Shown piece after piece: positions 1,041 to 35,648 of a DNA stretch of 64,000 nucleotides. This stretch comes from Ginglymostoma cirratum. Its lineage: Eukaryota. Below the pieces are notes generated by a model. That model was not told the origin of the DNA and searched no databases. It saw only the letters and a list, made by a program, of their open reading frames with translations. The position numbers and the translations under genes were made by a program. The number at the start of each line of letters is the position of its first letter. Position 1 is the stretch's first letter. The stretch is from the NCBI GenBank assembly GCA_024137785.1, contig JAHRHZ010000274.1:17846871-17910870 (forward strand), read 5' to 3'.

Positions 1041-1049
1041 TTGCCATAG

Positions 1050-4321: not shown

Positions 4322-5434
4322 TCAACACCCTTCTTCCAGTAGAATCTGTAGCCCCCCTACTGCTTGAAACACTGAGTTAGGAGTAGCAAATGCAAAATAC
4401 TGGCAGCAAAGCCAGTCTTCCAGTTTTACTGGCTTCTCATCATTTAGAAACCTTTCCCCATAATTCAGCATCAGCAAAATACGTTTCATGTCCAACCAGT
4501 TTTTCAGCAACTGAGGTGGATCTTTGAATCCAGTGTTCAGACTGAACACATTCTGGTCTGGGCCCCAAAGTAAGGCCTGTAAGATGTGTTTTGCTTGGCT
4601 GATATGTATTCTTTTATTAGGATCTGCACATAAGAGTAAGTGGGCAAGATGTTGAAGCCTTTCAGAATAAATAGATAACAGGCGAATCTGAGGCAGGTCT
4701 CCTGTACTGTATTCTTCATAATGCTTTTGGCTTGAAATGCTCTCAATAGGGTTTGACAAGTGTAGCACCTCATAGATCAAAATGCCCAATTGAAACTCAT
4801 CAACCTTCTTGTACTGGGATGCAGACATCATTTCAGGTGCTAATCGGACCTGATCCGGGTGCAGTTTTTGATCAATTGCTGTACTCTTTTGTTTAGCTTT
4901 AGAGAAGTTGCTGATAATAAGTCTTGGCAGCTGAGGATTAGTACTGTGTTCTTTGCCTCTTGGCTCAGCCACCTTAACCAGCAGGAGGTTTTCCAGACGG
5001 AGGTCACAATGTGTAACGTTATGATTTTTCAAGTGTTCCAACCCTAGACACAACTGCAGAAGGAGAAGACATATTTGACGTTCATAGACATCTGCCTGGG
5101 ACTCATGGAGAGCCACTGAATCTTTTACAAAATCTGCCATGGTTTGATAGGGAACCTCCTGTGTAATGATCACAGCTTGAGACCTTTGTGTTATATTGTT
5201 GTCTGGTTGGGTTTCAGAGGTTTCTGCCTCAGCGTCTGGCCCAGACTCGTTCTTTTCTACTTCCAAATCACCAGAGCTCAAGGCCGCATCTCCAGAAGGC
5301 AAGAGGTTTGTTGGAATCATGGCAACAAAATGGCCACACACCCTTTGTACATTGAAATGGAAAGGGAGGCTTTCCTGTACGGAGAGGCCACAAGGCTGCA
5401 TCTGCAGGGCTTCTTGGTTCAGAGTTTTGATGAT
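4322..5434 (-). CDS. PEAK3: PEAK3-like pseudokinase, last coding exon (pseudokinase core and C-terminal SHED helices)
   Basis: Acceptor TTTTTACTTTTACCAAATGCAG|ATC, phase 0. Encodes HFNVQRVCGHF, YERQICLLLLQL, HCDLRLENLLL, RLIISNFS, LAPE, LQALLWGP and LEDWLCCQY, all typical of PEAK1/PRAG1/PEAK3. Stop TGA at 4322-4324. The joined CDS is 1947 nt (648 aa). Confidence 0.95.
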   Translation of the reverse strand: MIKTLNQEALQMQPCGLSVQESLPFHFNVQRVCGHFVAMIPTNLLPSGDAALSSGDLEVEKNESGPDAEAETSETQPDNNITQRSQAVIITQEVPYQTMADFVKDSVALHESQADVYERQICLLLLQLCLGLEHLKNHNVTHCDLRLENLLLVKVAEPRGKEHSTNPQLPRLIISNFSKAKQKSTAIDQKLHPDQVRLAPEMMSASQYKKVDEFQLGILIYEVLHLSNPIESISSQKHYEEYSTGDLPQIRLLSIYSERLQHLAHLLLCADPNKRIHISQAKHILQALLWGPDQNVFSLNTGFKDPPQLLKNWLDMKRILLMLNYGERFLNDEKPVKLEDWLCCQYFAFATPNSVFQAVGGLQILLEEGC

Positions 5435-5806
5435 CTGCATTTGGTAAAAGTAAAAAAAATGTGTAATTAAAAAAGTATATCTTTTATAATGTTATTGCTT
5501 ATGTTACTCTCAGTATGAAATTAAATTTATTTCTATGGGCCCACGAAGACAAAGATATCACTGAGGTAAGAAATGCCACTTTGGAATAGTGACTAAAACT
5601 AAATAGATAAGTAAAATGTGAATGTAATACACTTAGCTGTTGCTGAAACATTAAAGACATGACAGTAAAACCGTCTTTTCATTTTGATCAATAATAAGAC
5701 ATGAAACTAATGACTGAATGAACTAATTTAATTCCAGCTCTTTGTAAATTTTTGGGGTGAAGGCTGTGAAACCTGCACATCTATAATTGCAGACAACTGA
5801 ATTCCT

Positions 5807-6778
5807 TGTTACAGATATTGACAGAGAAACTGGGTGGTGGACAGTACGCCTGTGAACCTATTGCCCAGAAGGACAAAATAGAGTAAAAACAAACACTAAT
5901 GCATGGAATGCTGGAACATTATTCTGAGGTACAGAAAACAAGTTGGACTACGAAGTGTCATTCGCAAGTTTTACTTATTTTTCCTTCTGAGTGCTATAAT
6001 TTTATGGAGATGACTGGTTCTCGGTCACAGGCTGAAGGGCCAGTTAGAAACCCTCTGGCCACCAGTATTGGCTACCAGGTACGTGGTGACTGCTGCTAGG
6101 ATGACACCCACTGGACACCTAGGTTTGCAAAATGACCCAGGCCAGAGGTAAGTGGTAGTGGGGGTCTTTTCAGAAGAGTAGAATGGAAGACACTGGGGAG
6201 GACAATGTAATGGATTGGCATCATGGGCAGAGGATCACTTGTAGTAGCAGACAGAAAGAAAATGCATTGATAGCAGTGAAGTCTGGAAGGCTCTCTGTCT
6301 CTTTCTCTCCCTGTTTCCTTTGCATCATCCTGAAATTCGGCACCAATCATGAAACAAATCAGAGAATATTAATTCACCGAGAACTCAAAAGTTTCAGCAA
6401 GTCTCGCTACGGCTGAAGATATCAACTAAACATCCAAAGTCCTGGGTTCAATTGTAACATCTCAAGACCTCAAGAACTTTTAAAAATGCATATTTTTATC
6501 TTCTTATTTTACAAGACATGCCTGTTTTTAAAACAATTTGTGTGTTTTAAAATTGTGTCTTCGTTTGTTTTTGATGTCGCATTTTAATTTTTTTGAAGTG
6601 AGCAAGTAATAAAATTCTACTTTCTTCCACACATGTAACATTGTCATTGGCTCCTAAACTTTGACTAAATTATTTTAATTGACATATAGCTGCATGCTAA
6701 AAAGAGTTAAAAATCTTTCTAGTGGACAGCTGAGTGGGTTTAAAAGAAGGGAAGCCAATTCTTCATCTGGTTGTAACA
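5807..6778 (+). mobile_element. Possible solo or 5' LTR
   Basis: Termini TGTTACA...TGTAACA (7-bp inverted repeat) and an internal AATAAA near 6608. No target-site duplication found. Confidence 0.3.
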
Positions 6779-8104
6779 AAGCTGGCAGCTCAACTGAGGG
6801 GAAAAAAACGGTTCTTTCGAAAGTGTCTAAAAACAAACCTGAGAAAAAATGTTTTCTTGGGTCTGTAACATAAAAGTTCTAAAAATTTAACAGTGTGGTA
6901 TAGCAATGAACTAAAATGAATTTAAAAACCTTCACTGCAGCCAGTTGAGGGAGTTTAAAATGAAGGAAGCTGATTTCCTCCTCCTCTTCTAACTGTAGAT
7001 CATCACAAGGTTCCTGCTCTTGGATGCCTTGGGAGGCAACTGAACTTGTTGAACTTCTTGATAGCAGTCCAATGCATCTAGTTGGTTTTGTTGGCTGTTT
7101 CAAAGACTCGTTCATTCTCAACCATGTTGGTGTGGAGCCAGAGCTACATTTAGGTCAGACCAGCTAAAGACAATAGGTTTAACTTTCTAAAGTGCATTAG
7201 CTTTGGCAACCAACTTTTTACTTCTAATTCTTGAAAACTGGATTGAAATTCTAAAATTGACATGGCGGCATTTGGACTCCTATTCACTGAATACTAACCT
7301 TACAAGATCATCATTACAGTTATATCCCTCACAAGCATTGGATATATGTCCCACTCAACTATTCAAACCATTCAGTATAAAACATGTTACCTTGTAGATA
7401 TTTATGACTGACAAGTGAATCAGACATTATTGGGGTAGCTGGGAAAGTAGAATTGCGACAACAGTCAGTTCAGCATTGGTCTTGTTGAATGCCAGAGCAG
7501 ACTTGAGGGGTTGAATGGCCTACTCTTGTTTCTAATTCATAAGTTTGTTTGTCGAGAAAAGTAAAGGTGCAAACCGATTGCATCGCAATTAAATATAAGT
7601 TACTTCCTTCAAATGATTAATTAACAGACGCAATGTATTAATAATCTGAAGATAAAATGCTCAGAACTGGGTTACCAATTGATAGCTTTACCAAAATTCT
7701 AATAAAAACGATCAACTATATCGATACCAATAAATAAGAAACTTTATTTGTTGCTGACTTGGTAGTTACTGTTATTGAAGGAAAGCTTTCACATAACATT
7801 TTTACATAGACTAAATTACTTCCCTGTTTTTTACAGAATATTTTAGAATTTCAGTGTAGGGGGTATGTTTTCCAAAGTAGACTTGTTTTAACTGTACGTT
7901 TTATATGTAAGTATAGAAGCAAGATTCTTAAACGTTTGACTTCTGACACTCTTTGTTGTTCCAGTATCGAGAGTCTTTTACATTCTTCATGCAAGCACAT
8001 GATTTGGATCAACATTTCTGCAATTTCCTCATGCTGATTACAAAATTACATTCTTATAGCCAGAAAATATTGCGTAATTTTCAAATACTAAATCTGTATT
8101 ACAA

Positions 8105-8200
8105 AAGCAAAGTGCTGCAGATGCTGGAAACAGAAAATGTTAGAAATATTTAGTTGGTTTGGCAGCCTCTGTGGAGAAAGAAACAGCATTTTCAAGTCTG
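8105..8200 (-). mobile_element. Penelope-type terminal fragment
   Basis: CAGATGCTGGAAACAGAAA...GGCAGCCTCTGTGGAGAAAGAAACAG, the same family as 20820, 36940, 37770 and 57920. Confidence 0.55.
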
Positions 8201-8224
8201 ATGTTTCTTGCAAGAGTGAATGAA

Positions 8225-8700
8225 GCATAAAAATGGGAGTCTTGCTACTATATAGGGCACTGGTGAGACTGACCTAGAGTACTATGTACAGTTTTGGTCT
8301 CCTTAATTAAGGAGGAATATGCTTTCATTGGAAGTAGTTCAGGTAATGTTTGATTACTGGGTTGAAGGATTATTTTGAGGAAAATTTAAGCATGTTGGGA
8401 TTGTTTATATATTTTGGAATTTAGAGGAATGAGAGACAATCTTATTGATTCTTGAAGGTAGATAAGTACATGTTGCCCTAATGGAGGAGTGTACAACTAG
8501 GGAGAAAAATGAAATAAAAAGGCTTCTCTCATTTCAGACAGAGGTGTGGAGAAGTTGTTTTCTTAGAAGGTCCTTAGTCTGTGGAATTACCTTCCTCAAA
8601 GAACATTGGAGGCTAGGCCACTGAATATATTCAAAGCTGAGTTAGGCAGATTTTTGATCTACAAGGGAATCAAGCGTTATGAGGTGGAGTTAAGGGCACA
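8225..8700 (+). mobile_element. Decayed CR1 LINE 3' fragment
   Basis: CTAGAGTACTATGTACAGTTTTGGTCTCCT is the LEYCVQFWSP motif, and GTGGAATTACCTTCC is WNSLP-like. Confidence 0.8.
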
Positions 8701-9122
8701 ATTTTGATTTTATGACAATCAGCCATTATTCCAAGTTTTCCCATTGTATTCAAATTTCACTATCTACCATTGTGAGATTCAAACCCATGTCCCCAGACTA
8801 TTATGGTTGGGGTTCTGCATTATTCGTGCAGTGACATTTCCACTTTGCCACTGCATTCTCTGGATCAACTGTAATGTTATTGAACAACACAACAGGCTCA
8901 AGACCCATTCCCACTCCTATTTCTTATAACCTTATGATCAGGACTTAAACAAATGTTTGAAATAGAAAAGAGTGGAGGCATTGGTGGGCTGGATGGCAGA
9001 GGGATGTACAGAGGAGTAAAAGGAAAGGATAGAATGGAGGCCAGAGGGTATTAAATGACGAAAGGTTCTATGGTGCAAAGGCGAAGGGAATGGTACTGAG
9101 GTGTGAAAAAGTACTAAGAATA

Positions 9123-10091
9123 TGTTATAACCCTGGATCAGAACCTTAAAGTCTTTATAGATTTTTAAAAAATGATTCCGAATTGTGTTGTTTTTAAAAG
9201 ATGGACCACTATAGAAAAAGAGACTGTTTGTTTGGCAAAGTCTTGTGTGAAGCCCATGGAATGTCATGCATATAAATTGTCAGGAAAATTTCCAACAGGG
9301 AGTGACTTAATATGAAGAGATAACAAGGGAGGCTTACTATCTCTCCTCTCTCAACAGACAGACATCACTTGAAGACATGCCTGTCTTATCACACAGAAAT
9401 ATACAAAACGAGGGTTAAAAATTGACAGCAATACTGGTCAATGTGTGTTACGGCTGGACATCATAGTGCATGAACTAGATTACTGTGAGGGCTGCCACTT
9501 TGAGAATAACCATTTGAAGCACCCCAGCATTGCAGGTAAAATATTGGGAAAAATTCTTTCTCATTTTGAAAGCTGGAATTCAGGCACGGTCGAAAGGAAA
9601 CAGAATTTCAACTAACCTGCAAAACTAGGAATCTTGAAACTGACTGTTTAACTACAAGTTACAATACAATAACTAAAATACTACGGGTAACCTCCACTGC
9701 AATGGCCACAACATTAAATTATCCGCTCTTCACGAGCAATTCAGAAATTGCTTCATATATCTGCTTTTTTAAACATTTAACTTTTTGGATTTACCTCTTA
9801 TTTCTGATCTGTATGAATTTGCGTTACATTTTTATTTCTTCTATTATTTAATAATTAACAAATTCACTCTCTGTTAACTCAAGCCCCATAGTCAAGCTCA
9901 ATCCTGGTGAAACTGGTCCCTTTTAAAATATTTTGTTTGGTTCTGGGAGGAAGGATCCACAAGGGAATTGCTCCATTTCTAAATTAACCATGTTGTGACT
10001 AAGCAAAGGATAGATAAATAAGGAAGGGGAGCCATTGATTTCTCCTCAACAAGGAGTTTAATGATTCGGGTATCCCATATAATTATTAACA
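9123..10091 (+). mobile_element. Possible LTR remnant
   Basis: TGTTA...TAACA termini and a 3' part (GGGAGCCATT..TT..TC) resembling the end of 5807-6778. No TSD. Confidence 0.25.
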
Positions 10092-10844
10092 AGTTGAAGA
10101 TCCTTGCCCGGGTTCAGGGCATGAGAAACATGCTTACAAAAGGCATGAATGATAGGAAGGCAACTATTTGAACAGGAAGTAAAGGAAGTAAAAAGAATAT
10201 CTTTATATTAATAAATCTATATATAAATCAATAAGTCTACCATTACTGGAAAATTACTTTATTTGATGTCTTGCTACACTTGGCATAGAGGTACTGTGGT
10301 TGATTATAGTGGCCCCAGGTCATGCACCTGGGAATCAGGCTGTAAAACTCCTGCGTGGTACAGCTTAGTGCCACACTCCACAGTACCTTTTAGCAATTAA
10401 ACCATCAGGGCAGCCTCCAAAAAGGATGTATTTTGCTTCCAGACTTTACTTTTGGAAATATCAACACTTTATCTTATCAGTTGCAGTTATCATGTCGTGG
10501 TCTGAATTGAAGTAGCTTGGATACATCTTCTATGATCGGTTGAGCAACGAAGAGTCAATGTTATGTTATATCTGAAACAGCAGCAAGGAAGTTCATAGTG
10601 AGAAAAGATTTGATTAAAAAAAGGTTTTGGATTAGGAGGAGCTTGAATGGAGGAAGTGGATAATTTCATACTTCCTCATATTATATACCATCTGCTACCT
10701 TGTTGCACAGTCACTTAACCAGTCTATGTCGCTTTGCAGTACTTCTCTATTCAACACAACTTGCTTTCTCACTTAACTTTGTACTTTCATCAAACATTGA
10801 TATATTATACTTGATTCCCTTATCTACATCATTGACATTGATTG

Positions 10845-11200
10845 TAAATAGCTGAGGCCTACACACTGATCCTTTTGAAACTCCACGAGTTATACCTTGC
10901 CGTTTTGAAAATTACATGTTTATTCTGACTCCCTATTTTCTGTCCTTTAACCAATCATCAATCTATACTAGCAGGTGATTCCTAATCCCATGAGCCCTAA
11001 TCTTGTGCAACACCTTTCTGTGTAGCAGCAAAGAATGTCTTCTGAAAATCCAAACAGACTATATCCACTGATTCTAAATACTACCCTGTTAGTTACAGAC
11101 TCAAAAATTTCTAATAGAATATATTAGTTACAGATTTTAGTATTCTTCCTGCTACTAATGTCAGGCTAAAAGATCTGTAATCCTTGTTTTCTCTCTCCCC
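10845..11200 (-). mobile_element. Old CR1 LINE RT fragment
   Basis: The minus strand gives decayed VVCLDFQKTF and V(S)KGSV.GLSYL motifs, corresponding to YLDFQKAFD and GVPQGSVLGP. Confidence 0.6.
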
Positions 11201-13536
11201 ACTGGTCCTGTACAGATATGTGATGTTTGCTTCCTAATCACCCAAGAATGCTCCTTGATGGGGCATAGAAGGCCAAAGCCTAACTAGTGACTTGGGCTTT
11301 TAAAGAGAACTTTGGTGATTAAGATGTTAGTTCCCCACTGTAGGAGAAGCGATCTTGTAGATTTTCCACATTCTTTTAGCAATATAATCTCAGAAATGTA
11401 AGTTAATTGAAAGAGTGAAAACGTCAAAAGGAAGCATTTTTGAAACCAATGCAAGAAGCAAGTGAAATAGAAGGGAAGCTATGGAAATTAAATATTTATC
11501 TATTGAATGATGCAGCAAGAGTGTGAAATTTTCTCAGTTAGGTCCATCTTGCTGAAAGTAGGTTGTATTTAGCTATAAGTAGACTCAGCAATGTTCTACA
11601 GATACCTCAGAGAAAATAGCAGGCACCTTAATGAGACACATCAATTATTTCTGTGGGGCATCTTTAATAATAAAAAAAGGGAATTTCAGATTGCACATCA
11701 AGCTTTAGGGCTTTTAAATATATCAGATTAGGCATTAAACAATAAAAGATAGGAGTGACTTTGGATTATCAGTTGGAAAGTGTTAACCACACTCAATTAA
11801 ATCAGGACCTCATACAATGATAATTTTGCATCCAACGAAGAAGCAGACCAGTTTAAGCAGTTTGACTGGACAGTTAAAACGATTCTGCACTGAGAACAGA
11901 CCATGTCAATTGTGACATGTTGGAATCGAGTACTATGATAGAACGTACAAATGCTGAGAAAGGCTTGACAGCAAATAAAACATTTAAAAAATAAATCTAG
12001 AAAACACACATGCCAAGCTTTCCCAGATTTAATTATACTGTTGATAGGAAAGGATAATAAATGTCTGTCAGCCTGGGCAGTGAATGAAAGAAAATGGTTC
12101 ATTTAAAGTACTGTAGCTGTAGAAACATTGTCACTAGTACCAGCTACAGATACAGGAGAGTATTTATCTAAAATTCGAGATCAAAACTGTACAAGGAGCT
12201 TTCTGAGAAAAAATTGCCCATAAAATGTTATGTGGATAACCATTTTCTTTGGGACAATGTACATTCAACAAAGGATGTCATTAATAAAAGATTGAGGATT
12301 GGCCTTACTAACATAAAGGAAATATTAGAAAAGATTTCAAAAGCAAATTGGGTGGTTTCAAGTCACGAATTGTCAGACTGTCACACAAAGAAAGGTGCTT
12401 GCTCCAGTTGTTTCAGATCCTCAAGGAAAGACTCCTGATGGTACAAGAAATTATAATAAATAAATGAAAGAAATCTACTTTTATTTGTTTTGCTTTGCAA
12501 TTAAATGTGTTTTTTGGTTCAAAGGCTAAAAGGGAAATATGATGGGTTTGCTTGAATAATATGGAATATGAAAAAATTGTTACTGATTGGTTGTATAATA
12601 AGGTAGAGTGTTCATTTAAAATATTGTGTTTACTTTTCATCAATTTATTTGTATGTCTCAAAGTTTTTATTCAAAGAGGGGAATATGTTGAAATAGCAAA
12701 CGGTTAAGCAGAAAATTGGAGTAAATTAGAATAAGTTGACTGGATAGGTATAAAAGGGGGACATAGGGGATTGTTGTGTAAAAGGAGCTGTAAGATTGGT
12801 TAATCAATGAACTTTATCTACAAAGAATGATGGCTTGGTTTCTGTTTCACTAAACAGCTTGGACCTCATATGACAATGAGAAAGTTGCAAATCTTTGAAC
12901 CTAAGTGAACTGAAGGAATAAATGGGACAGCCATGTAAATTGGGAATGTGCATTGTTATAATATGATATAATGCCCGGTGCTGGCACCATGTTACATTTC
13001 GTGCCTGGGTAAACCACTCCTCCTTCCTATGCAAGTCTAAGAGGCTGTTCAGTAGTTTGTGGTGGAGCGTGGACCATGAGTAAGTCTCAGCACAAGTGGC
13101 TATTGTCCTTCACAACAGGATGTAGTTTATTACATTGCATTTACTAAATCCAGGTCACATTAACTTAGGCATACAACTAAGAGGTAGAGAAAACACATGT
13201 GTTTCTCGCAAGTGATTGTGCCAGACATCAACTGATTCTTCACCCAGAGCTGCGTGATATCATCTGACTGAATGGAACCCATCAAAAGTCAAACATTAAC
13301 TCTTTCAGAACCATTTCCTCATACATCATAGCCAACATAGAGAATGTAGAGATTTCACGGGGTTGGAGGTTTCTGAATTCATGTAGTTAAGCAAGTGCAG
13401 TGATCATTTGTAGCTGATGCTGATTAGAGTTTGCAAAAATATGCTGTACTGGGGATGGCGTGGTTAACCTAACTGACTACACTGTGTGTAAGTACCTGCT
13501 ATTAATACAATAGATCCATCCATGTAAACAAGCATG

Positions 13537-14522
13537 GAGTCATAGAGTCATACAACATGGAAACAGACCCTTTGGTCCAAACAGTCCATGCCGACCATAA
13601 TCCCAAACTAAACATAGTCCCACCTGCCTTCAAACTTTCTTATTCATGTACTTGTGTAAATGTATTTTAAACGTTGTAACAGTAACCGCATCCACCACTT
13701 CCTTTGGAAGTTCATTCTACACTGTAAATACTATGTGTCAAGAAGTTGCCCCTTGTTTCCTTTTTAAATCTTTCTCCGCTCACCTTAAAAATATGCCCGC
13801 TAGTCTTGAAATTCCCTACCCTAGGGAAAAGACACCTACCATTCACCTTATTTATACTCCTCATGATTTTATAAACCTCTGTAAGGTCACCTCTCAATGT
13901 CCTACGCTCCAGTGAAAAATGTCACAACCTATCCAGCCTCTCCCTGTAACTCAAATCTTCCATTCCTGGCAACATACTGGTAAATCTTTTCTGAATCCTC
14001 TCCAGCTTAATAATATCCTTTCTATAGCAGGGCAAGCAGATCTGGACACAGTACTCCAGAAGCAGCCTCACCAACATCCTATACCAACATTAACATGACT
14101 TTCCAACTCCTATACTCAAAGGCCTAAAGCAATGAAGGCAAGCGTGTTCAATGCCTTCTTAACCACCCTGTCCACTTGTGACATAAACTTCAAAGAATTA
14201 TGTACGTGAACCCCTAGGTTACTTTGTCTTACAACACTGCCCAAAGCCCTAATTTTAATTGTATAAGTCTTGCCCTTATTTGTTTTACCAAAATGCAATA
14301 CCTTGCATTTATCCAAATTAAACTTCATCTGCCACTCCTCAGCCCATTCACTCAATCATTCAAGGTCTCTTTTTAATCTTAAATAACCTCTTCACTGCCC
14401 ACTATACCACCAATTTTGGTATCATTGCAAACTTACTAACCATGCCTTCTGTATTCTCATCTAATTCATTCAAATAAATGGCAAACAAAAGCAGACCCGA
14501 CACCAATCCCTGAGGAACACTG
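13537..14522 (-). mobile_element. CR1/HER1 LINE, 5'-truncated
   Basis: ORF pieces WAEEWQMKFNLDKCKVLHFG and MRGDLTEVYKIMRSI, plus a (GACTCTAT)n tail at 13537. Confidence 0.92.
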
Positions 14523-17063: not shown

Positions 17064-17755
17064 CTTTAAAGCAAACTCATTCTCTGGCTGCAGTGTGGAC
17101 TGGACTCTGTAGTAAATGGCCTCTCTGGAGTCGCAACAGGGTTTGTCGCATGGCAGCTTGAGGTCTGGCCAGTCCTTCTCAGTAAACTTTATCTTCGCCT
17201 TCTTGTCATCCATCAAGAAAGAGCTGTATTTCGCACAAATGCATTTCAGTGACATGACACACCGGCTGGCAAGAGTTTTGAAAATGTCCGCCTGATTTTC
17301 AAAATTACACCACTTCTGTAATTCCCGATCTGTACTGCAAAAGCTCAACTTCTCTATATCTACCTGAGAATTGCTGACATGATAGTAGCTGGCAGCTCCA
17401 TCCAGACTCCGGGATTTTATCATTCCTGCCCTTCTACTACTGGCATGAATTGGAAGATTGAATTTTTCATCAGCGTTCATTGGACTGCTCGGTGTACTGA
17501 AACTCGTTTTTCCTTCATAGATACCATACAGTGGGTTACTTATTTGAAAGCCAGGAGACGCTGGAAGACTTCTTGTTAAACCAAGGTGACTTCCACCAGG
17601 AGCTGAGTTGGTCCTGCTGAGTGTCTTCTTTGGAAGGGGCGGTGGCCTTGTGTTGTCAGGAGACCCCTCATCAACTGACTTTCCTTGGGAGGCCATTAAC
17701 GCTTCACTCACTCTTTGGAGAGTCTTTATGGGTGTTGTACTGGAATGGACTTCTG
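17064..17755 (-). CDS. PEAK3: PEAK3-like pseudokinase, coding exon 2 (Crk SH3 motif, 14-3-3 motif, SHED alphaN helix, kinase N-lobe up to the beta3 Lys)
   Basis: Acceptor TTTTATTTGCTTCGTAG|CAG|AA and donor AAG|GTAACT at 17063 (phase 0). Encodes PPPLPKKTLSRTNSAP, NPLY, PCCDSREAIYYRV and FALK. Confidence 0.92.
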
Positions 17756-17834
17756 CTACGAAGCAAATAAAACAAACACCTGTTATTTCACAAGAACAAA
17801 GATCCTATTGTCAATCTAGTTGTCTTTATAGAGC

Positions 17835-18260: not shown

Positions 18261-19649
18261 GACCATGATCTCGTATATGCAACACAATTGATGCTGTTGT
18301 TTTTGACCAGGGATATCGGTTAAAAGAGCTGTGAACTGAAGCATGCTTTTAGGATATTAAAAATGAAGAGTAACTGTTACATCTGCAACAGGCCTTACTT
18401 CTGGTGGCAGTGACATTTCTGACAAAGGAAGAGGGTTTCATCCAGGATTTATCACCAGGAGGCCGAGAGAGATCTTCCCTTTATTTTACCAAACCACATC
18501 ATTAACTACCTACCCCACACCGATGTTGTCCCTTTGCTCAATTCTAGCCATTCCCAGGTATCTGGAATTAACTGGCATCTCTGGTGCTGGTGTCATCTTG
18601 ATAAGTCTGTTGTGCACCCAGTCAAGATAAGAGTTGCCTTGCAGAGTTCCTGACATTTATCCCATATGTGACAGGGAAGGGAAAATGGACACACTAATTT
18701 GCGGTCATATACATGGAGTTCTGCTGGGGTTGTGTAATCGCATGATGTCATCTTCCCCCTGACAAGCATAGCAAGTTATGACACCAGACCAGACTTAGTT
18801 AAAAGATGTAAGGGGTTGCTTCCAGTGTCGAGATAGGCCTTGCCAGATTTCTTGTGCCAGTCTGCCACATTTCTCACAATAGCCCAAGTTGTTGTAAGGT
18901 TCTTCTCATTGTGCTTGATGCAGATATGAATGACAGCAGATCAATCATCAGCACAGTAAAGTTGATGACCCTAATTAGACCCTGAAAATTTTTCCCTGAG
19001 TATGATGCTGCCCTGACATTGTTTTAATTCAGGAATTTTAAACTTACAATCAGTACCTCAAAATATTAATGATGTTTTGCGTTGATGCTTAATCTTTTAA
19101 TACATGATTCTTTTGCAGAGGCTGAATGGCCTACTTCTGCTCCTATTTCCTATGTTTTCTATGGCAATCTTAAAGGGCTCTCAACTTCAGCTTTCATCAT
19201 TTGATTTTCACTGGCTAGAACCTATTATAGACTAATATGGAGTTAAAAAAAGAAAAATAATGACTCAGCTGTCACTGTGATTATCTGAACAGGTTGAGGC
19301 AAGCTTCATAAAACCATCAATAACTAAAAATGTCTAAACTAAAATTAATGTCAGCAAAATGATTTTCACCAGTCACTCAAATCTGTATCTCTTGTTTGAT
19401 TCATACTTTTCTAGAAGTTTTATATATCAGGATAAAAGTTGCCTGCAGACTATCTAGCTTGGGAGAAGAAATAACTGGTTTACACAAATGGACTGTCTTT
19501 CAGACAATTGGTTTGGGGCAGACAAGGGGGAAGAAAACTGATTTACAACATCAGAAGTTGGAAGGCTCGTGCTATCTTCTCTCTGCCTCAGAAACCAGTG
19601 CCTGGTGATGAACCAAATTGGAGAAATATCCATTTGCTGAGAACGGAAT

Positions 19650-20930: not shown

Positions 20931-21052
20931 TAAACCAGTTATAAGGCTTTGTAATTTTCAGTGACAAAAGGGCAGATTGTCCATGTGCTCCTAGATGGTA
21001 AATGACCTAACCAGTGGCCCTTAAAAGGATTGCTAGACCATGCTCATAAAGC

Positions 21053-21160
21053 AGGGTTCTTGTGGTGCAGTGGTTGTGTCTCTACCTCTGTGCAAAGAGA
21101 TCCAGGTTCAAGTTCCACCTGCTCTAGAGATGTGCAATAACATTTCTGAAAATGTTGATG
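21053..21160 (+). mobile_element. Short tRNA-derived SINE
   Basis: TGGTGCAGTGG (A box) and GGTTCAAGTTCC (B box). Same family as the tandem pair at 34398-34600. Confidence 0.65.
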
Positions 21161-25140: not shown

Positions 25141-25156
25141 AGTTTTTTAGTTCTAA

Positions 25157-25220
25157 GATAACAAGGTGTAGAGCTGGATGAACACAGCAGGCCAAGTAGC
25201 ATCAGGGGAGCAGGAAAGCT
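25157..25220 (-). mobile_element. Penelope-type terminal fragment
   Basis: GAGCTGGATGAACACAGCAGGCCAAGTAGCATC resembles the end of the element at 59764. Confidence 0.55.
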
Positions 25221-27349
25221 CCTCTTAAATATGGTGCTGGCTTTTTGCTAGCATTGGACATTTGCCTAACTAAAAGCAAACATCCACAAAATGATGACAT
25301 TTCAGGCTCATATATTTTAATGAGAGCATTTTGTCCTCATTTTGCCTTCACGGTACTGATAAAATCATACATTAATTACTATAAGTATGGTAAAAAATAT
25401 ATATTTCAAATTTCCTTTCATTAGCTATACTTGTGAGTGATAGTCACTTAAATTCTTTGAAACAGATCATATCTCTAAATTGTCAATGCCACAAGATGGA
25501 AAATAACTTTATGCACTTTTATCTGATCAAAAGGTTGACCGAGTTTGACTTAAGAATTCAAAACAATTTAAAAAATATTTTTTGTTTAAAATTGCCCAAA
25601 TAAAGCTTGTGAATATTCAGTGGCAATAATAAAGTGTGTGATAAATAATTGAACCCTTTCAGTAAAACAATGAGTAAAAATGAGCAAGACATTTCTCCTC
25701 AAATGTGAATTTAATGAGTTCTTTATAGATTCGAAGTAGCAAACTGCATTCAAACTGGTTTGTGCATATTGACCTTTTCAATCTGCTTGGTGTTAAGACA
25801 AAGGAATAGGAAACTCCTCCAGGACGCATTGGTAGTATCGAGCGGTGTCAGATCAATGTAGCCAGCTACAGGGTGACAGTCCATTTTGCCACTAACCATC
25901 CTGGCATAATGCTCAGAAGAACAGTTAAAACTTTTTAAATTCCCCATGATTGACACTCGAATAAGACTGCTACAAATTTGCGCATCATGCATCCACATAT
26001 GTTAGATACTTGCCCAAAACCTATTTTACATAAAATACCTGTGTTTTGCAGAGCCAAGAGATTTTTATTGCCATTATTTGGATTGTAATTCTAAAGCAAG
26101 GTGGAAGTATCTAATTCACTGCTCCACCTCGACATTGTCATAATCAAGTAAGATTTTGAAGGTTCTTAATGCAACATGACTTTATGAGAAGGGAATGATA
26201 CTGTCATCACCCACGACATTTCCAATGCAGGTCCATACTCTGAAATGATGATATCATTGTTGGTGACAGACACTTGTGCGCATCCACGTGCTTTAAGAAA
26301 GGTAATCGTGCAGTTATATGAAAAAGCTGCTTATTAACTGCTATGATATTGAGCATCTTACATGTGTGCATATGTTCTTTCTAAAAAAATGCCAAGTTTG
26401 TATTTGATTTTGTAATATAGGTGGCAAAGAGTATCTATCTAAGCAGGAAGCTTTACTATAATGCATTTTGAACCCGGTCTCTTAATTGAACATTCATACT
26501 TCCTTCACCCCATCAGCGTCTTCAGGTGACTAGACCTCAAACTTTGAAATTCACATCCTAACTACCTCAATTTCTTTCTTCTCTTTACAAACAATCTGTT
26601 TGAGCAAGCTTTGTTTTTACTAGCATCAAGGTATTTTTTTCTTTATTAAATAAATTGCTTTCAATTCTTCCACGGATTTAAGTTGCTTATGATCTAACAA
26701 TTTCTATTTTTACAGCTCTATTTGTCTTTATTTTTCAGACGTTTTAGCAATTTGTTGTTTCTGCTGCCTTTTTAAAAATATTTATTCTATTCTGTACTCT
26801 TACTGTCATGTAAATTCATATACACTCTTTCATAGCATCTGTCAATGATATTGCACAAAGCAGGAAAAGTGAAGAAACTACTTGCAATTTAAGCAATAGA
26901 TTCCTGTAACCGTTGCCATCTGATACATGGTGTAATTTCTTAGTGTCACCCTTATGTCCATAGGCAATGCTTACTCACTTTATCTCAGGCATTTTGACTA
27001 TCTTCAGCTGACAGTCTATGAATGTCTCTCTCAAAGTATGACATTTGTTTATCGTTGCTGAATGAGTTTATGATGCACGTTCTCCTTTTGAGAAACATAA
27101 ACGTCTAATCCACAAAATGTCTTTATGAGAAGTTTGGAGAAAAGGGGGTGATTCCTATCCCAAAACTGCATCAACTTATGGCCATAGCAATAACTGAATG
27201 GATGAAATGTTGGAAAATGACACGATACTTATGTCTAGTTCTGTAGCCAACAGCCTGGAATATTAATATACAGCATCTGTGATGGGGTGATGAGCACTAC
27301 ACTGGGTCTATACAGCTTTCTACTCTACTCCCATATATTAAGTCACACA

Positions 27350-28276
27350 ACAACAGGTTGTAGTCCAACAGGGATTTATTTGAAATCACAAACTTTCAGA
27401 GTGCAGCTTCTCCATCAGGTGAAGTGGACGGAAGTGCACAGGCACGGATTTTATAGGCAGAGAGGTAATGGCAGGATAATTCCAGGTAATTAAGAGTGCC
27501 AAAAGATAAGTACAAATTGTGCGAGTGGAGTGTCAACAGGCTGAATAACAAGTCTTTGCAGGTGATCAAAAGTGTCAAACTTTTACACTTTAGTAAGCGT
27601 CCTCCAAGGTTATACAACAACGCAGAATCACCGAGCAGAAACAGATAGCCAAGTTCTGTACCCATGAGGACAGCCTCAACAGTGATTTTGAGTTCATGTC
27701 ATGCTACATGTAGCCCGACCATATTGTTCTGTGTAAAATCTTCCTTACTGTTCTGTTTTGAAACCATCACCTTGATAGCTTGTTATTATCTCCCTACCCT
27801 AATTAGCTTGTACAGTTTTGGATTACTTGTTACCTTGGTCAGACCCTCACCATGTGATTCTTATATCCATCAAGCCATTTGGTTTGTCTCTTAGCACCAT
27901 CCTATTTTTGATTTTTTTGTAATTATCTCTCTGCTTTAATTAATCGGATCATAGGTTATCCCTTCACTTGCTAGTCAGCTGTTAATGCTTTATTCACACT
28001 GTCTGACACTTTTGATCACCTGCAAATATTTGTTATTCAGCCTGCTGACACTCCACTCACACACTATTTGTACTTATCTTTTGGCACTCTTTAATTACCT
28101 TGCCATTATTTCTCTGCGTATAAATCCTGTGCCTGTGCACTTCCCTCCACTTCACCTGGTGAAGGAGCAGTGCTGTAAAAGTTTGAGATTTCAAATTAAC
28201 CTGTGGGACTATAACCTGGTGTCATGTGAATTCTGACTTTATCCACCTCAGTCCAACACCGGCACCTCCACCCAAC
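27350..28276. mobile_element. Penelope-like element remnant with about 230-bp inverted terminal arms and a 15-bp TSD
   Basis: 27345-27577 is near reverse-complementary to 28005-28229. The direct repeat ATATTAAGTCACACA lies at 27335-27349 and 28277-28291. Decayed hammerhead cores are present in both arms. Confidence 0.8.
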
Positions 28277-30239
28277 ATATTAAGTCACACATCTCACCTT
28301 ATTGTTCAAGTAAACTCTAGCATGATTTGAACCCAGCCTACAGTTTCTGGACCAGGTGTTGGTTCAATCTATTAAACTGCCTGGGGTGTTGATTGTTGAT
28401 GGTAGGAATATCAGATTGCTACCGCTAAGTCAAGGGCAAATACTGATTCAAATAAAAATATATTTCAATAGGTGACAATGCCAATAGGAAACCATTTGCA
28501 ATTATGTCATTCCTTTCACAACTTCATGATCTTCCAAAGCACTTCAGTTTAAATTAATACTTTTTCTTAATTCATAGAAATTCAGGATCAGAGACATTCT
28601 TCCTGAAAAGGTGTTGGAAGTTGATTTCAAAGTTTGATGATAAGGATCTTTTAGGGTAATGGACAATAGTGGAGTTGTCAGACTATAATGCAACTGATCT
28701 TTCAAAAAGATGGCATACGTACAAGAGGCCAAATAGCTTTCTCTGTGCTGCAAATTTTCATGATTTTGTGAATTTAGTAGTTTTGAACACCAGAGCAGCC
28801 AATTTGCTCACAGCACACTTCTACAAATAAGAACAAGATGGATGTCCAGATAATCTCTTTTTGATATTGAGATGGCAGACAGGATCTTGGTTTAATGTTG
28901 CATCTGAAAGTTGGCACCTCCAGCAATGATGAGCCCCCTCAGGGTTATGCTAGCAAGTCAGCAGGAAATGGAGGGAACCTGAATCTATAACTTTCTGACT
29001 CCAATATAGAGATACACATCCACGAAAATAAATACAACACAATTTCTGTTCTGCATATAATCTCTACATATATCTTGATAGCTATCTTTTAGCTGCACTC
29101 AAAATTATGCCACAAAATAAAACTCTTCAAAGGGCAAAATAGTCCAGACATGAATTAAGTGCAAGTACATTATTGTGTGTAAAGTATACATTTTAAATAA
29201 TATTACATCATTTGTTTTCTTGTCCTCCCTTACACTGGCAAGAAAAAAGGATAAGCAAGTCCACTTTCAGGTGGATATTTTTAAGAAATAAAATTATGGG
29301 ATGAATATTTTAGTAGAATGGTCAGAACAGAAAATAATTTAAAAGGTTTGCTTAAAATTATGTTGTTGTGATAATCCTTATCAGGTCCAAGGCGAATCAC
29401 TAATTAATCACCTTGTGGAGCTTGTTGGGTATGAGTTCCCTTGGTAACAGGCAATGGCCTGCCCATCTGGAACTCATCCCCTGAGCCCTTTATAGAGCAG
29501 ACCAAGGAATGAGTCTGGAGAAGTGTCTGCCCTGGGTTGGGACTAGCCTATGTATTTCATGAGTAATTGCTGTATTTTGTTGTTGCTTTCTGGTTAGGTT
29601 TCCTGAGTTATTACATTGGTGAGGAGAGTCAATTAAAGTTTCAGACAGTCTTGCCTTTCAATGAACCAGGTAAGATCTTGACAGGGAAATTTTAATGAAA
29701 GCTGCTTTTTGGGAAACTGGAACCTTGTGATGTGTGTGGAGGATTGGCCCCAGTACACTGAAGGAATAAGATATTTCTTTTAGGCAAACAGGATAGGAAA
29801 GCATCAACAACAAAATTTCATTTTGCTGACTGCTTGAGGGGCCCCAACTTTCAGCATCATAAATAGCTTAACCTACTTGGCAGTGTCAAAATGAAGATCT
29901 CTTGATGAACTGATAGTGTAGAGGACAATGACCCCAAACCAAATGTTAAGTTCTAGCATTATAGGGTTAACATGGCAAATAAACTTCATGGGGAAACAGT
30001 TACTAAATTCTTGAAGAGACTGCAGAAATTGGCATAACACTGATTATGGGTCAGCACTTTGTGAAATGTTAAGGGATTCTTTATTTTGTGGAATGAATAA
30101 CATTGCAACCCAAAGGGAGCAATTGACTGAGCTAGATCTAGACCTCAAGAAAGCAATCGAACTGGCCCTTTCCCATGAAAACAGAGAAAAGGGGTTCAGG
30201 AGCTTCAGGAGTCTAGACACAGACTAGTAGTCAGCCACT

Positions 30240-30312
30240 TACTCTGTAGCTCAGTGGGTAGTGCGCTGGCCTTGTAAACCAGGGGTTGAGAGTTCAAGCC
30301 TCACTGAGGCCT
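30240..30312 (+). pseudogene. tRNA-Thr(TGT) pseudogene or tRNA-derived retrocopy
   Basis: TAGCTCAGTGGGTAG.GC.CTGG.CTTGTAAACCAGGGGT.G.GAGTTC.A.CCTC.CTG.GGCCT closely follows vertebrate tRNA-Thr(TGT). The acceptor stem cannot pair and the anticodon stem has a C-A mismatch. Confidence 0.8.
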
Positions 30313-30385
30313 GTGGCAACTTCTGCTTCCAAGATCCAAAGGAGCATTTTAAATATAATCTGAAATTATGACAATATCATTTTCA

Positions 30386-30684
30386 GGCAGTATGGTGGCT
30401 CAGTGGTTAGCACTGCTTCCTCACCGCTAGAAACCTGGGTTTGATTCTACCCTTGGGTGACTGTCTGTGTGGAGTTTGCACATTGTCCCCATGTCTGCAT
30501 GGGTTTCCTCCCTCAGTCCAAAGGTGTGCTGGCTAGGTGGATCGGCTATGTTAACTTGCCCGTTGTGTTCAGGCATGTGTAGATTAGGTGAGTTATAGGG
30601 GGTGAGCCTGGGTGGATGCTCCAAGGGCCGGTGTTGACTTGTTGGGCCAAAGGGTCTGTTTTCATACTGTAGGGATTCTATGAT
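30386..30684 (+). mobile_element. HE1-type (V-SINE) element nested in the Gypsy element
   Basis: GGTGGCTCAGTGGTTAGCACTGC head, V-domain GTGTGGAGTTTGCACATT.TCCCC.TGTCTGC.TGGGTTTCC, and HER1 tail CTGTAGGGATTCTATGAT. Confidence 0.9.
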
Positions 30685-33600
30685 CTTTTCCCTTGTACCG
30701 CACAGCCAGGCCCCTAGCAGATAATACTTGCGGGTCCCGTTTGTTGCCAAGGTAGGGTGATTGATTGTATTTGGAGGCTGTAAGGTTCTAGAACTGGATG
30801 GGATGTTTCTCCACAATAGTGAGGATCAAGAATATCTATGCTGTGCTTGTAATCAGAGTTTGACAAAGACAAGGCAGGCAAAACACGTACTGCCCAGGCT
30901 AAAAGGTGGAGACACCTCAAGGCAGGGCTTCGCAAATAAATCAGTCTGAGCATAAAGAATTGACAAAGCCATGTTGCACCCCTGCTCCCAAAGTGGCCTC
31001 AATTAAGATAAAACTCCAGATTAATGGCCACCCCTTACACTTGGAGGTAGACACAGGTGCCACTGTATCTATTGTTGGGAGCAAACCTTTAGGAAACTCC
31101 AATGGGCAGCTTGCCTTTAAGCCAGTGAGACACCAAGGCTCCATTGGTCACATGCACTGGGGAGATCCTACGTATAACTGGGACCACTGTAACCCCAGTT
31201 AAGCATTGGGAACAGACTGTCTGCTTCCCCTTACTGGTCATACAAGGGCCAAGTCCCAAACTTTTAGGAAGGGACTGGATACGGGGAATCCAAATGGATT
31301 GGCATCAGATCTGTAAAATGGGCACTGGTGATCTTTGTGAAGTCATTGGAATGTATCCCAAAGTGTTCCAAGAGAAACTTGGAAGGATAAGAGGTGCCAG
31401 GGCCAAGATCTATGTAGATCTAAAGGTCTGACCTAAATACTTCAAGGCATGGATAGTCTCCCATGCCTGATGTGTCAAACCAGAGGCTGAATTGGAACAT
31501 CTAGAGGAACTTGTTTGCTGAATGGGCCATTCAGACCCAATTTTAAAACCTGACAACTCAATCTGTATCTGTGGGGGTTATAAGGTGACGGTCAACAGAG
31601 ATTCCTGCTTAGACAGATACCCTATGCCACAAATAGATGACTTGTATGCCAGGCTGGTTGGGGGTATCATGTATTTTCCAAACTGGCTATGATCCACACC
31701 TACCTCCAACTGGAGCCTGAGGCATCATCCAGGAAGTATGTCACAATAAATACTCAAGGGACTGTATGAGTACACTGACTAGCCTTTTGGGGGTATCTTG
31801 CACCATCTTGCAAAGGGTGAAGGAGATCCTCCTCCAAGGGATGCCCAGAATGGTGATCTATCTGAATTAGCTTTTAATTTTAAGAACTGCTGCAAAAGAG
31901 CACTTGGAGAGGTTGGAAGAGATTTTGCAGCATTTTTCTACACCTGGCATGTGGCTAAAAAGGAAAATGTGTGTTCCAGGTAAACGAGGTGATGTACCTC
32001 AGACACAGAGTTGACCAGGCCTATTACATCCTGTCAGAGAAGGTGAGGCTATAAAAAGGGGCTCCGACTCCAGGGAACACAACAGAGTTGGAGTCTTTTC
32101 TAGGTCTCATAAAAGATGATGGGAAATTCATACCCAGCCTGTTGATTCTGCTGGTGCCCCTGCATGCCCTGCTAAAAGCATTCAGGAATGGTTGTGGCAA
32201 GTGTCACAAGAGAAAGCCTTTATAAATGTCAAACAGCCATTACTGTCAACAAATATATTAGCTCATTTTGACTGTCTGAAACCTCTCATTGTAACCTGCA
32301 ATGCCTCCCCCCATGGGATGGGGCAGTATTATTGCACCTTTAGGGTGATGGGACAAATATCCAATCACATATGCATCATAAACCACTGCAGACGCAGAAT
32401 GGAAGTATGCCCAGATTGAGAAAGAAGGTTTGGTCATGATATTCACATTGAAAAAGTTCTTGTCTAGGTCTGGCATTTCACTATAGTAACTGATCACAAA
32501 CCTCTTCCAGGAAGACAGGGAAATCTCCCATTACATTAGCTTAGATCCGACTCTGGGCTCTGCCAAGAGGTACCTATGAATACACCTTGGAACATTGTAA
32601 AGGGAGACATATAGCCAATGTGGATGCCTTCAGCCACCTACCTTCACCTCTGAAGATGAATGAAATCATCATGACTTTGAACTTCATGGACACTCTACCA
32701 GTATCTGTGAAGTAAATCCAAGCTTTGACCAAAAACGACGCTACGGTGGTGAAGCTCTGTAAAAGCCTATCTTTTTAAATGGTAGACCACAAGGACGTCC
32801 TATGGAAGAGCTGAAACCCTATATCTCAAATATCAGGAGCTGAGCACAGAAGGTGGCATTATCCTGCAGGGCGCCAGGACTGTTGACTCCCATCCAGGCC
32901 AGTGATTAATACTTAAGCAATTGCACAAGTCCTGGCCACCCAGGAACTTTTAAAATAAAAATGCCCACAAGGAGCTATATTTGGTGGCCTGGCATAGACA
33001 TGGATATCAAAAGCCCGGTCAAGTGGTGCAAACCTTGCCGGGAAGACCAGAAAGACCCACTAGCAGCCTCGCTGCACCCTTTGGGAATGACCAGGGAGAC
33101 CCTGGATGTGAGTACATGCAGATTTCACAGGGTCATTTGTGGGATCTACATTCTTAACCCTCATCAATGGCCATTCAAAATGGATTGATGTGCACCAAAT
33201 GGCGCTCCACTATTTCTTACAACACCATCGCAAAACTCCACCTGTCCTTTAGTATGCATGGTACACCTAAGAACCTTGTAACAGGCAATGGGACCTCATA
33301 TACTGTGAGGGATTTCAGGCCTTTATGAAGGCAAACAGGGGGAGTCACATCCACATGGCACTGTACCACCTGTACTCAAATGGTCTGGCTGAGCGGACCA
33401 TCCAGCTATTTAAACATAACATGAGGATGCAAACTACAGGGTCTTTAGAAACAAAGCTTGCACATTTCCTCTCCAACTATAGGACAAAGCTGCATATGAC
33501 AATGGGAGTAGCACCAATGAAACTATTGATGGGCTGACGCCTTCAAATCAGGCTTAGCCTGACGTTCCCATACTTGGGCGGCTAGGTTGAATTAAATCAT

Positions 33601-34397
33601 AAAAGCCCAGAAAAGGGGCCATGATGGGCAAAAGCCAGTCAGTAATTTTAAACCAGGAGATACAGTCCACGGAACAAACTTTGGTGATGGCTCCCATAGA
33701 TTACAGGAGCTATCCTTAAACAAAGGGGACTGGTATCCTATTTGTTTAATACTGTGGAGAAGTCCACAAAAAAGCACATCAACTACCTCTGTCAGAGGAA
33801 ACCGTGCGCAGAAGCGATTATTTCAACAAACACACCACCAATAGCATCCTGCAGATGGGAATCTTCACCCAGTAAAAGCTTGAAAGCCAGCCCTGAGGAC
33901 TTCTAAGAACTCAGACTCAGAGACACAGGCAGCGGAAGCTCAGTTGGAGGTCACCACTGAGAATGAGCCTCCTGTAGACGATCTTTCATGGTCTTCAGAG
34001 GAGGCATAAACCTACTGATTATACACACTTCCCCCATCCCCGACCAGACCCAGAAAGCATCAGGAATGGGGCTATGGGCAAAGTCATGCAAGAGGCCCCA
34101 TCATCACAGGAATGAGGGATAACCCGCAGACTCTAAGATCTACTAACCCCTTCAAGACTCATTGGGAAATCACCAATTAATCTCCCATGGAGCTTGTTGA
34201 ATATGAGTTTCATTGGCAATTACATATCTAAATGGAACACATCACCTGAGCCCTTTATGAATCTGACTCTGGGACTTGGTCCCAGGGTACCAAATATGCG
34301 CTATCAATAAACCATGTGACAAGGTTACTTTAATTGAAATGGTACCGATAATCGATCATAGCCCCAGAGACATCTTGTGAAGGGAAAGCGAGTTTGT

Positions 34398-34600
34398 CAT
34401 ACACACCTCTGGAGCAGGTGGGGCTTGAACCCGGGTCTCCAAGTCTGGAGGTCAGGATGCTACAACTGCACTACAAGAGGGCAGAACATTTTTAATCAGC
34501 CTTTTCAGAGGTGCTTTGATACATCTCTGAAGCAGGCAGGATTTGAAGCCAAGCCTTCTAGTTCAGCAGCAGGGACACTACTACTGTGAGACAAGTGCCC
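34398..34600 (-). mobile_element. Two tandem short tRNA-derived SINE units
   Basis: Units 34398-34482 and 34519-34600 each read A box...B box...CCTGCT.CAGAG.TGT on the minus strand. Confidence 0.65.
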
Positions 34601-34648
34601 TTGAGCTGTGTTGCATTGGAACTCTGTACATGTTTTTGCCTGTTGGTA

Positions 34649-34692
34649 GGGAGGGGGCAGAGGGGGGCAGAGGGGGGCAGAGGAGGGCAGGG
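34649..34692 (+). repeat. 10-bp G-rich minisatellite (AGGGGGGCAG)x~4
   Basis: Directly visible in the sequence. Confidence 0.9.
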
Positions 34693-35506
34693 ATTGCAGG
34701 GTTTAGCTGGCAGTGAAGGGAGGGTAATCTTGCCGGGGTGTTGTATACCTCGGGAGGGAACTCTCCAATCATACAGCAGCAGGTAATACAAGACTCCACC
34801 CACTAGCCACCCTGACTCCTGCCAGGCTGGTGGCACAGATTCTCTCATTACTGGGTAATGGTGGTTAGATGAAGCCATGAAGTAGGCTAAGAGACTCAAC
34901 TGTGTCACTGGAGACTGGGCTGTGCATGCCACCCCTAACACTGGTATAATTGTGGCAGGGGCACATGTGGGCAGGAAGGCCATCCACAGTGACCACATGC
35001 CCAACAATCTCAAATACTTATTAGGAAAGTGAAATCCACCCCAGACCTTTCCTGCTTCATTTAGTACCAGTTAGTACCGTTTCGTTTCTCAATAATCTCT
35101 GTATGGGTTCCCAATTTCACATAATACAGTGCATAACATAGGAGAACAACCAGTTATTTGCTTTCTGTTAACCAAGTTCTTCAAGTTAATTATTTCTGAT
35201 TAGTTACAGACCACTTTAACATTTATACAGGTATTGAAAACTTAGGAGTGAAAATTGTTCATTTCACTGTGTTAGCTGATAACCTGCACTCATGACAACT
35301 GATACTGCAATGATCAAAGAAAACCTGCAGTTAATTAAACAGCAATTAAAGAACTGAACTCATTTATTAAATTAAAAATCACATTTCAACGTCTTGTTCA
35401 CCTTTATCCTTCCCCAGTTGATACCTTCTCATACAGCCCCGCAGCGTTGCTAAAGGAATAGATTACACTGTACAAGACTTTTATTTTTAATTTAGCGAGC
35501 TCTTAC

Positions 35507-35648
35507 CCAGATTAACATAGGTCCTGCAGTCTGACTCTATGCTACTGGTGGATTCTTCTGAGTTGAATATTGCCGAGTCTTCTGAAGTTGAGATTTGCTG
35601 TTGCGAGCAGGGACTGCTCAAGTCCAAATCTGAGATGCTTCCACTCAT
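35507..35648 (-). CDS. PEAK3: PEAK3-like pseudokinase, coding exon 1 (MSGSISD...CRTYVNL, 47 codons + 1 nt)
   Basis: ATG at 35648 has G at -3. An acceptor (pyrimidine tract then CACAG) ends at 35668 and the donor CTGG|GTAAGA is at 35506. The exon ends in TYVNL-G, like the human PEAK3 TYSNLG Grb2-type pY-x-N motif. Phase 1 matches the next exon. Confidence 0.8.

Follow-up and report, generated by a model that had tools for sequence, protein, structure and literature searches.

A Probable PEAK3 Orthologue of Ginglymostoma cirratum with Ancestral NKF3 Pseudokinase Motifs

Introduction

A gene of the carpet shark Ginglymostoma cirratum raises the question of how a short protein that carries the kinase motifs of PEAK1 should be assigned among the PEAK pseudokinases of the NKF3 family, and of how the DFG motif of human PEAK3 arose. 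The gene is located on contig JAHRHZ010000274.1 (GCA_024137785.1) between positions 17,846,871 and 17,910,870, a stretch of 64,000 nt that is referred to as the window; all parts of the gene lie on its minus strand. Sequence comparison suggests, with a probability of about 0.9, that it is the cartilaginous-fish orthologue of PEAK3, slowly evolving and equipped with chordate-ancestral NKF3 motifs (HxD, NFS, and APE). The gene is already known, as near-identical RefSeq proteins exist and a cartilaginous-fish PEAK3 has been published since 2021.

Phylogenetic Assignment of the Window Protein

Trees were calculated from the SHED–pseudokinase part of the proteins after the HxD, DFG, and activation-segment columns had been removed. 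In a tree of 48 rows, the window protein and the other chondrichthyan copies were sister to bony-vertebrate PEAK3 with a Shimodaira–Hasegawa-like approximate likelihood ratio test (SH-aLRT) support of 99, and the same grouping again received an SH-aLRT of 99 in a quick LG+C20 search with 46 rows. A jawed-vertebrate tree of 30 rows without an outgroup, from which 18 of the 48 rows were left out as long or redundant, split PEAK3, including the sharks, from PEAK1 + PEAK2 at 100/99. Approximately unbiased (AU) tests on this tree rejected a grouping with PEAK1 (p 9e-5) as well as one with PEAK2 (p 1e-4). The original prediction had proposed a PEAK3 orthologue lying outside the PEAK1 clade, and this assignment is supported by the trees, the AU tests, and the published placement of the elephant-shark protein.

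Several observations weigh against this assignment. A bootstrap LG+G4 tree with invertebrate outgroups, which like the 46-row tree was calculated after two long rows (Myxocyprinus and Myxine) had been dropped, placed the shark copies with PEAK1 + PEAK2 (48/47); its root fell on the fast branch of bony-vertebrate PEAK3, and PEAK3 was not a clade. The 48/47 support is weak and long branches take part, yet the recovery of PEAK3 as a clade is root-dependent. The domain of the window protein is 45–49% identical to PEAK2 and 37–45% to PEAK1, but only 30–31% to placental PEAK3, and its sequence E-values are 3e-95 for PEAK1, 1e-88 for PEAK2, and 4e-20 for human PEAK3. Furthermore, Asp184 and the dimer Ala436 of human PEAK3 (human numbering was taken from the bonobo protein) are replaced by Glu and Gly.

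Two other assignments were weighed. Database names would suggest a truncated duplicate of PEAK1 or PEAK2 peculiar to cartilaginous fish: of the 36 rows in the cluster, 25 carry the name PEAK1 or PEAK1-like and three the name PEAK3 or C19orf35, two have generic names, and six are unnamed. The best PDB matches in sequence and fold are likewise PEAK1 and PEAK2, and the HCD/NFS/LAPE set is identical to that of PEAK1. However, both groupings were rejected by the AU tests, the common motifs are ancestral (HYD/NFS/LAPE in amphioxus), and a true PEAK1 is present separately in the same species among the relatives (1789 aa in Stegostoma and 1764 aa in Rhincodon; Callorhinchus has all three paralogues), which makes such a duplicate scarcely credible. 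The protein could also be a fourth copy left by whole-genome duplication and retained in cartilaginous fish, sister rather than orthologous to bony-vertebrate PEAK3; the unrooted three-way split would allow this, as would the rooted LG+G4 tree, in which shark and bony-vertebrate PEAK3 were left unjoined. This is very unlikely, given that no second short PEAK was present in any cartilaginous fish among the matches obtained, that the N-terminal architecture is common to bony-fish PEAK3, and that the 48-row and 46-row trees follow the species split. Orthology to PEAK3 is therefore preferred, and the names of this cluster in databases are mostly wrong. Since similarity favors PEAK1 and PEAK2, the 25 PEAK1-type names can be explained, and the expected mislabeling as PEAK1-like has indeed occurred.

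The PEAK3 proteins of bichir, pigeon, a cypriniform, paddlefish, and coelacanth (P0173, P0187, P0212, P0301, and P0389) are named PRAG1, SgK223-like, or PEAK1-like at NCBI; misnaming of PEAK3 thus extends beyond sharks. A frog "PEAK1" was considered as a fourth paralogue and rejected, as its long branch falls inside PEAK1. A fast-evolving group of PEAK1 proteins (P0347, P0171, and P0344), with the tailed frog among its members (branch 0.78), is nested within PEAK1.

Gene Structure and Probable Upstream Exon

The predicted 648-aa product (1947 nt) is encoded by three exons (35648–35507, 17755–17064, and 5434–4322) separated by GT–AG introns. Intron 1 is in phase 1 and begins one base past TYVNL, with a split codon for Ala, and intron 2 is in phase 0 directly past FALK; both positions had been predicted correctly, but the split codon had been read as Gly. 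Numerous alternative GT/AG pairs at the locus likewise yield open frames. The chosen exon model is identical, without gaps, to the same-length Stegostoma (zebra shark) protein XP_048415910.1 at 620 of 648 residues, and to the final 648 residues of the 846-aa Rhincodon (whale shark) record at 618 positions. The significance of the domain (Pfam Pkinase, E 2e-15; PEAK1 6BHC, E 3e-95) indicates that the match is not due to chance. Exon 2 (17064..17755) encodes the disordered region, the tandem site, a SHED helix, and the start of the N-lobe up to the β3 Lys278, and exon 3 (4322..5434) encodes the remaining pseudokinase domain, the C-terminal SHED helices, and the stop codon. Tandem AG acceptors 3 bases apart at the start of exon 2 (17750–17760) would also allow a 647-aa form; isoform pairs one residue apart occur in relatives (648/647, 663/662, and 897/896 aa).

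The exon with the in-frame ATG (35648–35646) and TYVNL spans 35507..35667, and its 5′ boundary is a splice acceptor. This acceptor (AG at 35669–35668) lies 19 bases upstream of the ATG and is preceded by a T-rich polypyrimidine tract, the whole element occupying 35668..35697. No other in-frame ATG occurs in the open frame of the ATG at 35648, and the stretch from the acceptor to this ATG encodes residues identical to those of the 846-aa Rhincodon form at 9 of 9 positions. Because the ATG exon opens at a splice acceptor, it is probably an internal exon, which implies an exon further upstream. The 648-aa model is therefore probably incomplete at its 5′ end, and the full-length form would be approximately 190 residues longer. 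Judging from relatives, these residues probably contain one further copy each of YxN and PxLPxK. The exons and length given in the original prediction were reproduced, but at most one isoform would be a three-exon protein of 648 aa with a short N-terminus.

Among 34 records from 19 cartilaginous fish species, nine species had a form of 838–897 aa, a tenth had the extra PxLPxK within a shorter record, and the other nine had only forms of 581–670 aa. The added N-terminal part in cartilaginous fish carries an additional YxN and an additional PxLPxK, 97–100 residues ahead of the tandem site. The upstream PxLPxK was also found in PEAK3 of lungfish, caecilian, paddlefish, bichir, turtle, and a cypriniform, and was absent from axolotl, pigeon, and all 10 mammalian rows of the tree set. 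This upstream motif may already be visible among the 149 orthologues of Roy 2023 (Supplementary Fig. 1). A tblastn search with two long N-termini detected no match to the ~190-aa upstream coding exon of relatives in the window, including the 28 kb upstream of the gene. A YTTP look-alike at 18700–18850 was rejected as a chance match: it is weak, lies in intron 1, contains stops, and has the wrong spacing. The N-terminus of about 200 residues (about 400 in relatives with the long isoform) is much shorter than those of PEAK2 (947) and PEAK1 (1282). As the upstream exon of relatives adds only about 190 aa and not about 1,000, it would not produce the N-terminus of PEAK1 length that had been named as an argument against PEAK3.

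Sequence Motifs of the Window Protein

The N-terminus has the features of an NKF3/PEAK protein, being disordered and carrying a PxLPxK–14-3-3 tandem site at residues 85–100. TYVNL (35508..35522) contains Tyr44, the counterpart by alignment of human PEAK3 Tyr24, which is a Src site and binds the Grb2 SH2 domain as pYxN (Roy 2023, PMC10279719). The tandem site (17598..17645) is composed of PPPLPKK, a CrkII N-SH3 motif, and RTNSAP, a 14-3-3 mode-1 motif in which Ser98 corresponds to human Ser69. RTxS-x-P together with the upstream PxLPxK is common to PEAK3 of lungfish, caecilian, paddlefish, bichir, and turtle.

The "Gly-rich" loop is free of Gly; it contains Glu259 and Tyr262 (human Asp184 and Tyr187) and lies with Lys278 (human Lys204) at 17064..17123. 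The residue at 17121–17123 is Glu in the window protein and three carpet-shark rows and Asp in the other six aligned chondrichthyan rows. Gln298, at the αC Glu position (human Gln221), and the pocket-blocking Gln308 (human Gln231) are encoded at 5345..5377. By alignment only, the protein carries the pocket-blocking residues of the NKF3/PEAK proteins, with Glu259, Tyr262, Gln308, and Leu429 surrounding Lys278, Gln298 in place of the αC Glu, and Asn in place of the Mg-binding Asp. The nucleotide pocket of human PEAK3 is reported to be blocked by the corresponding residues (Torosyan 2023, PMC10279700). The catalytic-loop motif is HCD (5003..5011), NFS occupies the DFG position (4901..4909), and LAPE (residues 476–479; 4832..4843) belongs to a full-length activation segment equal in length to those of PEAK1 and PEAK2. 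HCD, NFS, and LAPE are present as originally described.

Predicted Fold and Dimer

Structure models were made for the Stegostoma protein, a proxy 96% identical to the window protein, with a predicted local distance difference test score (pLDDT) of 62. Residues 1–178 are disordered in the model (pLDDT < 50), and the kinase fold is flanked by an N-terminal SHED helix (residues 202–224; 17226..17294; Leu217 = human Leu146) and by C-terminal SHED helices (residues 556–645; 4334..4603; Gly604 = human Ala436 and Cys622 = human Cys453). The kinase fold was closest to PEAK1 6BHC (Z 37.9; root-mean-square deviation 2.8 over 348 aligned residues), followed by PEAK2 (Z 36.9) and human PEAK3 (Z 27.6), with PINK1 next. 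SHED helices on both sides of the domain are indicated by the flanking helices, the structural overlap of residues 201–643, and a modelled interface on the helices. The homodimer model reached an interaction prediction score from aligned errors (ipSAE) of 0.58, while the best of three controls scored 0.00; contacts agreed by at least 91% between runs (pLDDT at least 72) and involved residues 190–223 and 571–622 on the SHED helices. Of 30 solved microbial homodimers, 21 pass the ipSAE mark, as against 0 of 23 monomers; for eukaryotes the figures are 17 of 29 pairs (7 of 16 for animals) and 0 of 30 monomers. As similar dimers have already been solved, the pass may reflect memorization by the predictor and indicates likeness, not binding. 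The helices flanking the domain are thus predicted to form a SHED dimer.

History of the Kinase Motifs and Origin of the Placental DFG

Ancestral states were read off the tree and counted by parsimony. Amphioxus has HYD/NFS/LAPE, lamprey PEAK1 HSD/NFS, gnathostome PEAK1 HCD/NFS, and PEAK2 HxD/NF(S,L,A). PEAK3 of sharks, coelacanth, and axolotl has HCD/NFS/LAPE; lungfish, caecilian, turtle, paddlefish, and bichir kept NFS and lost the catalytic Asp, and pigeon has QGD/SFF. Platypus (two isoforms) and six of six marsupials show HGD/NFA without APE. Among 39 placental rows, from which three unnamed mammal-like rows were excluded, 35 have DFG, one DSG, and one DFW (where the model jumps at the site), and two could not be read; HxD was found in none of 35 parsed placental rows. 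Asn occupies the position of the DFG Asp in amphioxus and lamprey, in PEAK1 and PEAK2, and in non-placental PEAK3, apart from cases such as the SFF of pigeon.

DFG requires one change on the tree, and this single change, with its direction given by the outgroups, places the gain on the placental stem, the branch on which HxD was lost. These comparisons support the conclusion that the DFG of human-type PEAK3 is placental-specific, not mammalian, and a late gain from NFA. The earlier view of DFG as a secondary acquisition agrees with the single change and with Asn in the outgroups, but the gain would be placental rather than mammalian. The human-type domain (DFG, LxE for HxD, no APE, and a short activation loop) is not seen in the window protein; its features are confined to placentals or mammals. 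It probably arose in steps: by the time of the mammalian ancestor (HGD/NFA) the activation segment had become shorter and APE had disappeared, and the loss of HxD and the gain of DFG followed on the placental stem. As a late gain from NFA, DFG would be no relic of an active ancestor. The natural variants, shark NFS, marsupial NFA, and placental DFG, make the role of PEAK3 DFG testable. A 2019 study by Lopez reportedly compared mammalian and bird PEAK3, and part of this motif history may therefore already be published. Human PEAK3 DFG has been termed "intact" and "only present in PEAK3" (Torosyan 2023, PMC10279700), and no statement of its placental specificity was found in the available portions of the PEAK3 literature, including the Lecointre preprint (10.1101/218669), PMC8141879, and PMC13519141.

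The cause and use of this gain were weighed together with the activity of the shark protein. It is possible, though somewhat short of an even chance, that placental PEAK3 rebuilt DFG from a pre-amphioxus N-F-x while losing the catalytic Asp on the same branch, and kept it structurally (dimer/14-3-3); shark, platypus, and marsupial PEAK3 would then be intermediates, and an ancestral doubled Grb2/Crk docking module would have been lost in mammals. If true, this would be a pseudokinase that regained a hallmark of kinases to serve a role other than catalysis. A nearly even chance is given to the explanation that DFG is a non-adaptive by-product of a GC-rich codon shift in a fast gene and was retained afterwards for the sake of folding; this concerns the cause only and is compatible with PEAK3 orthology. 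The ratio of Gly, Ala, Arg, and Pro to Phe, Tyr, Met, Ile, Asn, and Lys (GARP/FYMINK) rises from 0.8 in the window protein through 3.9–4.7 in platypus and marsupials to 5.4–10.8 in placentals, Asn to Asp needs a single A-to-G change under the genetic code, and the loss of the catalytic Asp falls on the same branch. All 33 of the 33 aligned placental rows have Asp330 and Gly332, which speaks against a by-product, yet 28% of the domain positions are equally conserved. An importance of DFG for dimerization (Lopez 2019, as cited in PMC8699254) and the DFG-in conformation of the human PEAK3 structure (Torosyan 2023) have also been reported and argue against it. As for the shark protein, residual kinase activity might be expected from Lys278, Asp422, LAPE, and the full activation segment, but PEAK1 with the same set is reported to have an occluded pocket, the DFG Asp, the αC Glu, and the loop Gly are missing, and the blocking residues are kept; such activity is extremely improbable.

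Erosion of the activation segment has been repeated elsewhere. In the fish PEAK3-like proteins P0192, P0199, and P0212, two of which are unnamed, HxD, NFS, and APE were lost independently of mammals. An arowana PEAK1-like paralogue (P0162) has NFG, a separate gain of Gly.

Proposed Function

The window protein is most likely a kinase-dead scaffold. By analogy with human PEAK3 (Roy 2023, PMC10279719, and a 2026 Journal of Biological Chemistry paper), a Src-family kinase would phosphorylate Tyr44 and Grb2 would be recruited, while CrkII would bind PPPLPKK with dimer avidity. Phosphorylation of Ser98 by basophilic kinases could then recruit 14-3-3 and displace CrkII. In human PEAK3, a second contact with 14-3-3 is formed by the Pro/Gly activation loop; the window protein has no such loop, and that contact is therefore probably a later feature. 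Overall, this is an ordinary gene with a modest evolutionary footnote, namely that DFG arose in placentals and that the N-terminus was ancestrally longer.

Other Features of the Window

Pfam analysis of 113 flank open reading frames (ORFs), comprising 28 of at least 45 aa at 1–4320 and 85 of at least 70 aa at 35900–64000, gave six retroelement matches and no neighboring gene, and Rfam gave no matches in the window flanks. Fragments of retroelements that contain domains of reverse transcriptase or endonuclease lie at 41951–42766, 45304–45881, 47000–47404, and 54988–56115; they appear similar to long interspersed nuclear elements, with a long-terminal-repeat-like piece at 42 kb. ORFs at 31129–31431 and 39376–39792, the latter without a Pfam match, resemble retroelement remnants. 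Short tandem arrays, AT-rich and GGGGGCAGAG, are located at 49100–49270 and 34653–34690.

Comparison with Known PEAK Proteins

Three PEAKs have been reported in elephant shark, bony fish, and coelacanth (Ounoughene 2021, PMC8699254). Elephant shark (Callorhinchus) PEAK3 XP_007896911.1, listed as PEAK3_Cmil in Table S1 of that study, belongs to the same clade as the window protein (99–100), has the same HCD/NFS/LAPE and N-terminal motifs, and is 56% identical over the SHED–pseudokinase part. Its current record is 844 aa long including an upstream exon (654 aa in the 2021 version), compared with 648 aa for the window part. The branching order differs: PEAK2 grouped with PEAK3 in our 48-row and 46-row trees (99 and 92), whereas Ounoughene 2021 paired PEAK1 with PEAK2 and called the order uncertain.

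The window protein matches human PEAK3 (C19orf35; PDB 8DP5) at Tyr24 (Tyr44), PPPLPKK, the Ser69 motif (Ser98), Leu146, Tyr187, Lys204, Gln221, Gln231 (Gln308), Leu311, and Cys453. Human PEAK3 differs in that it has LVE at the HxD position and DFG at the NFS position, lacks both APE and αG, and has a short Pro/Gly activation loop and an N-terminus of 130 residues; the two proteins are 31% identical. PEAK1/SgK269 (PDB 6BHC) resembles the window protein in HCD, NFS, LAPE, activation segment length, YxN motif, and SHED and is its best fold match, but it forms a separate clade, is ~1,750 aa long, and has a tandem site without Ser (RANTxP). PEAK2/PRAG1/SgK223 (PDB 5VE6 and 6EWX) has the highest domain identity outside the clade (45–49%) and a Ser-bearing tandem site; unlike the window protein, it belongs to a separate clade, is 1,200–1,480 aa long, and has no YxN before the tandem site.

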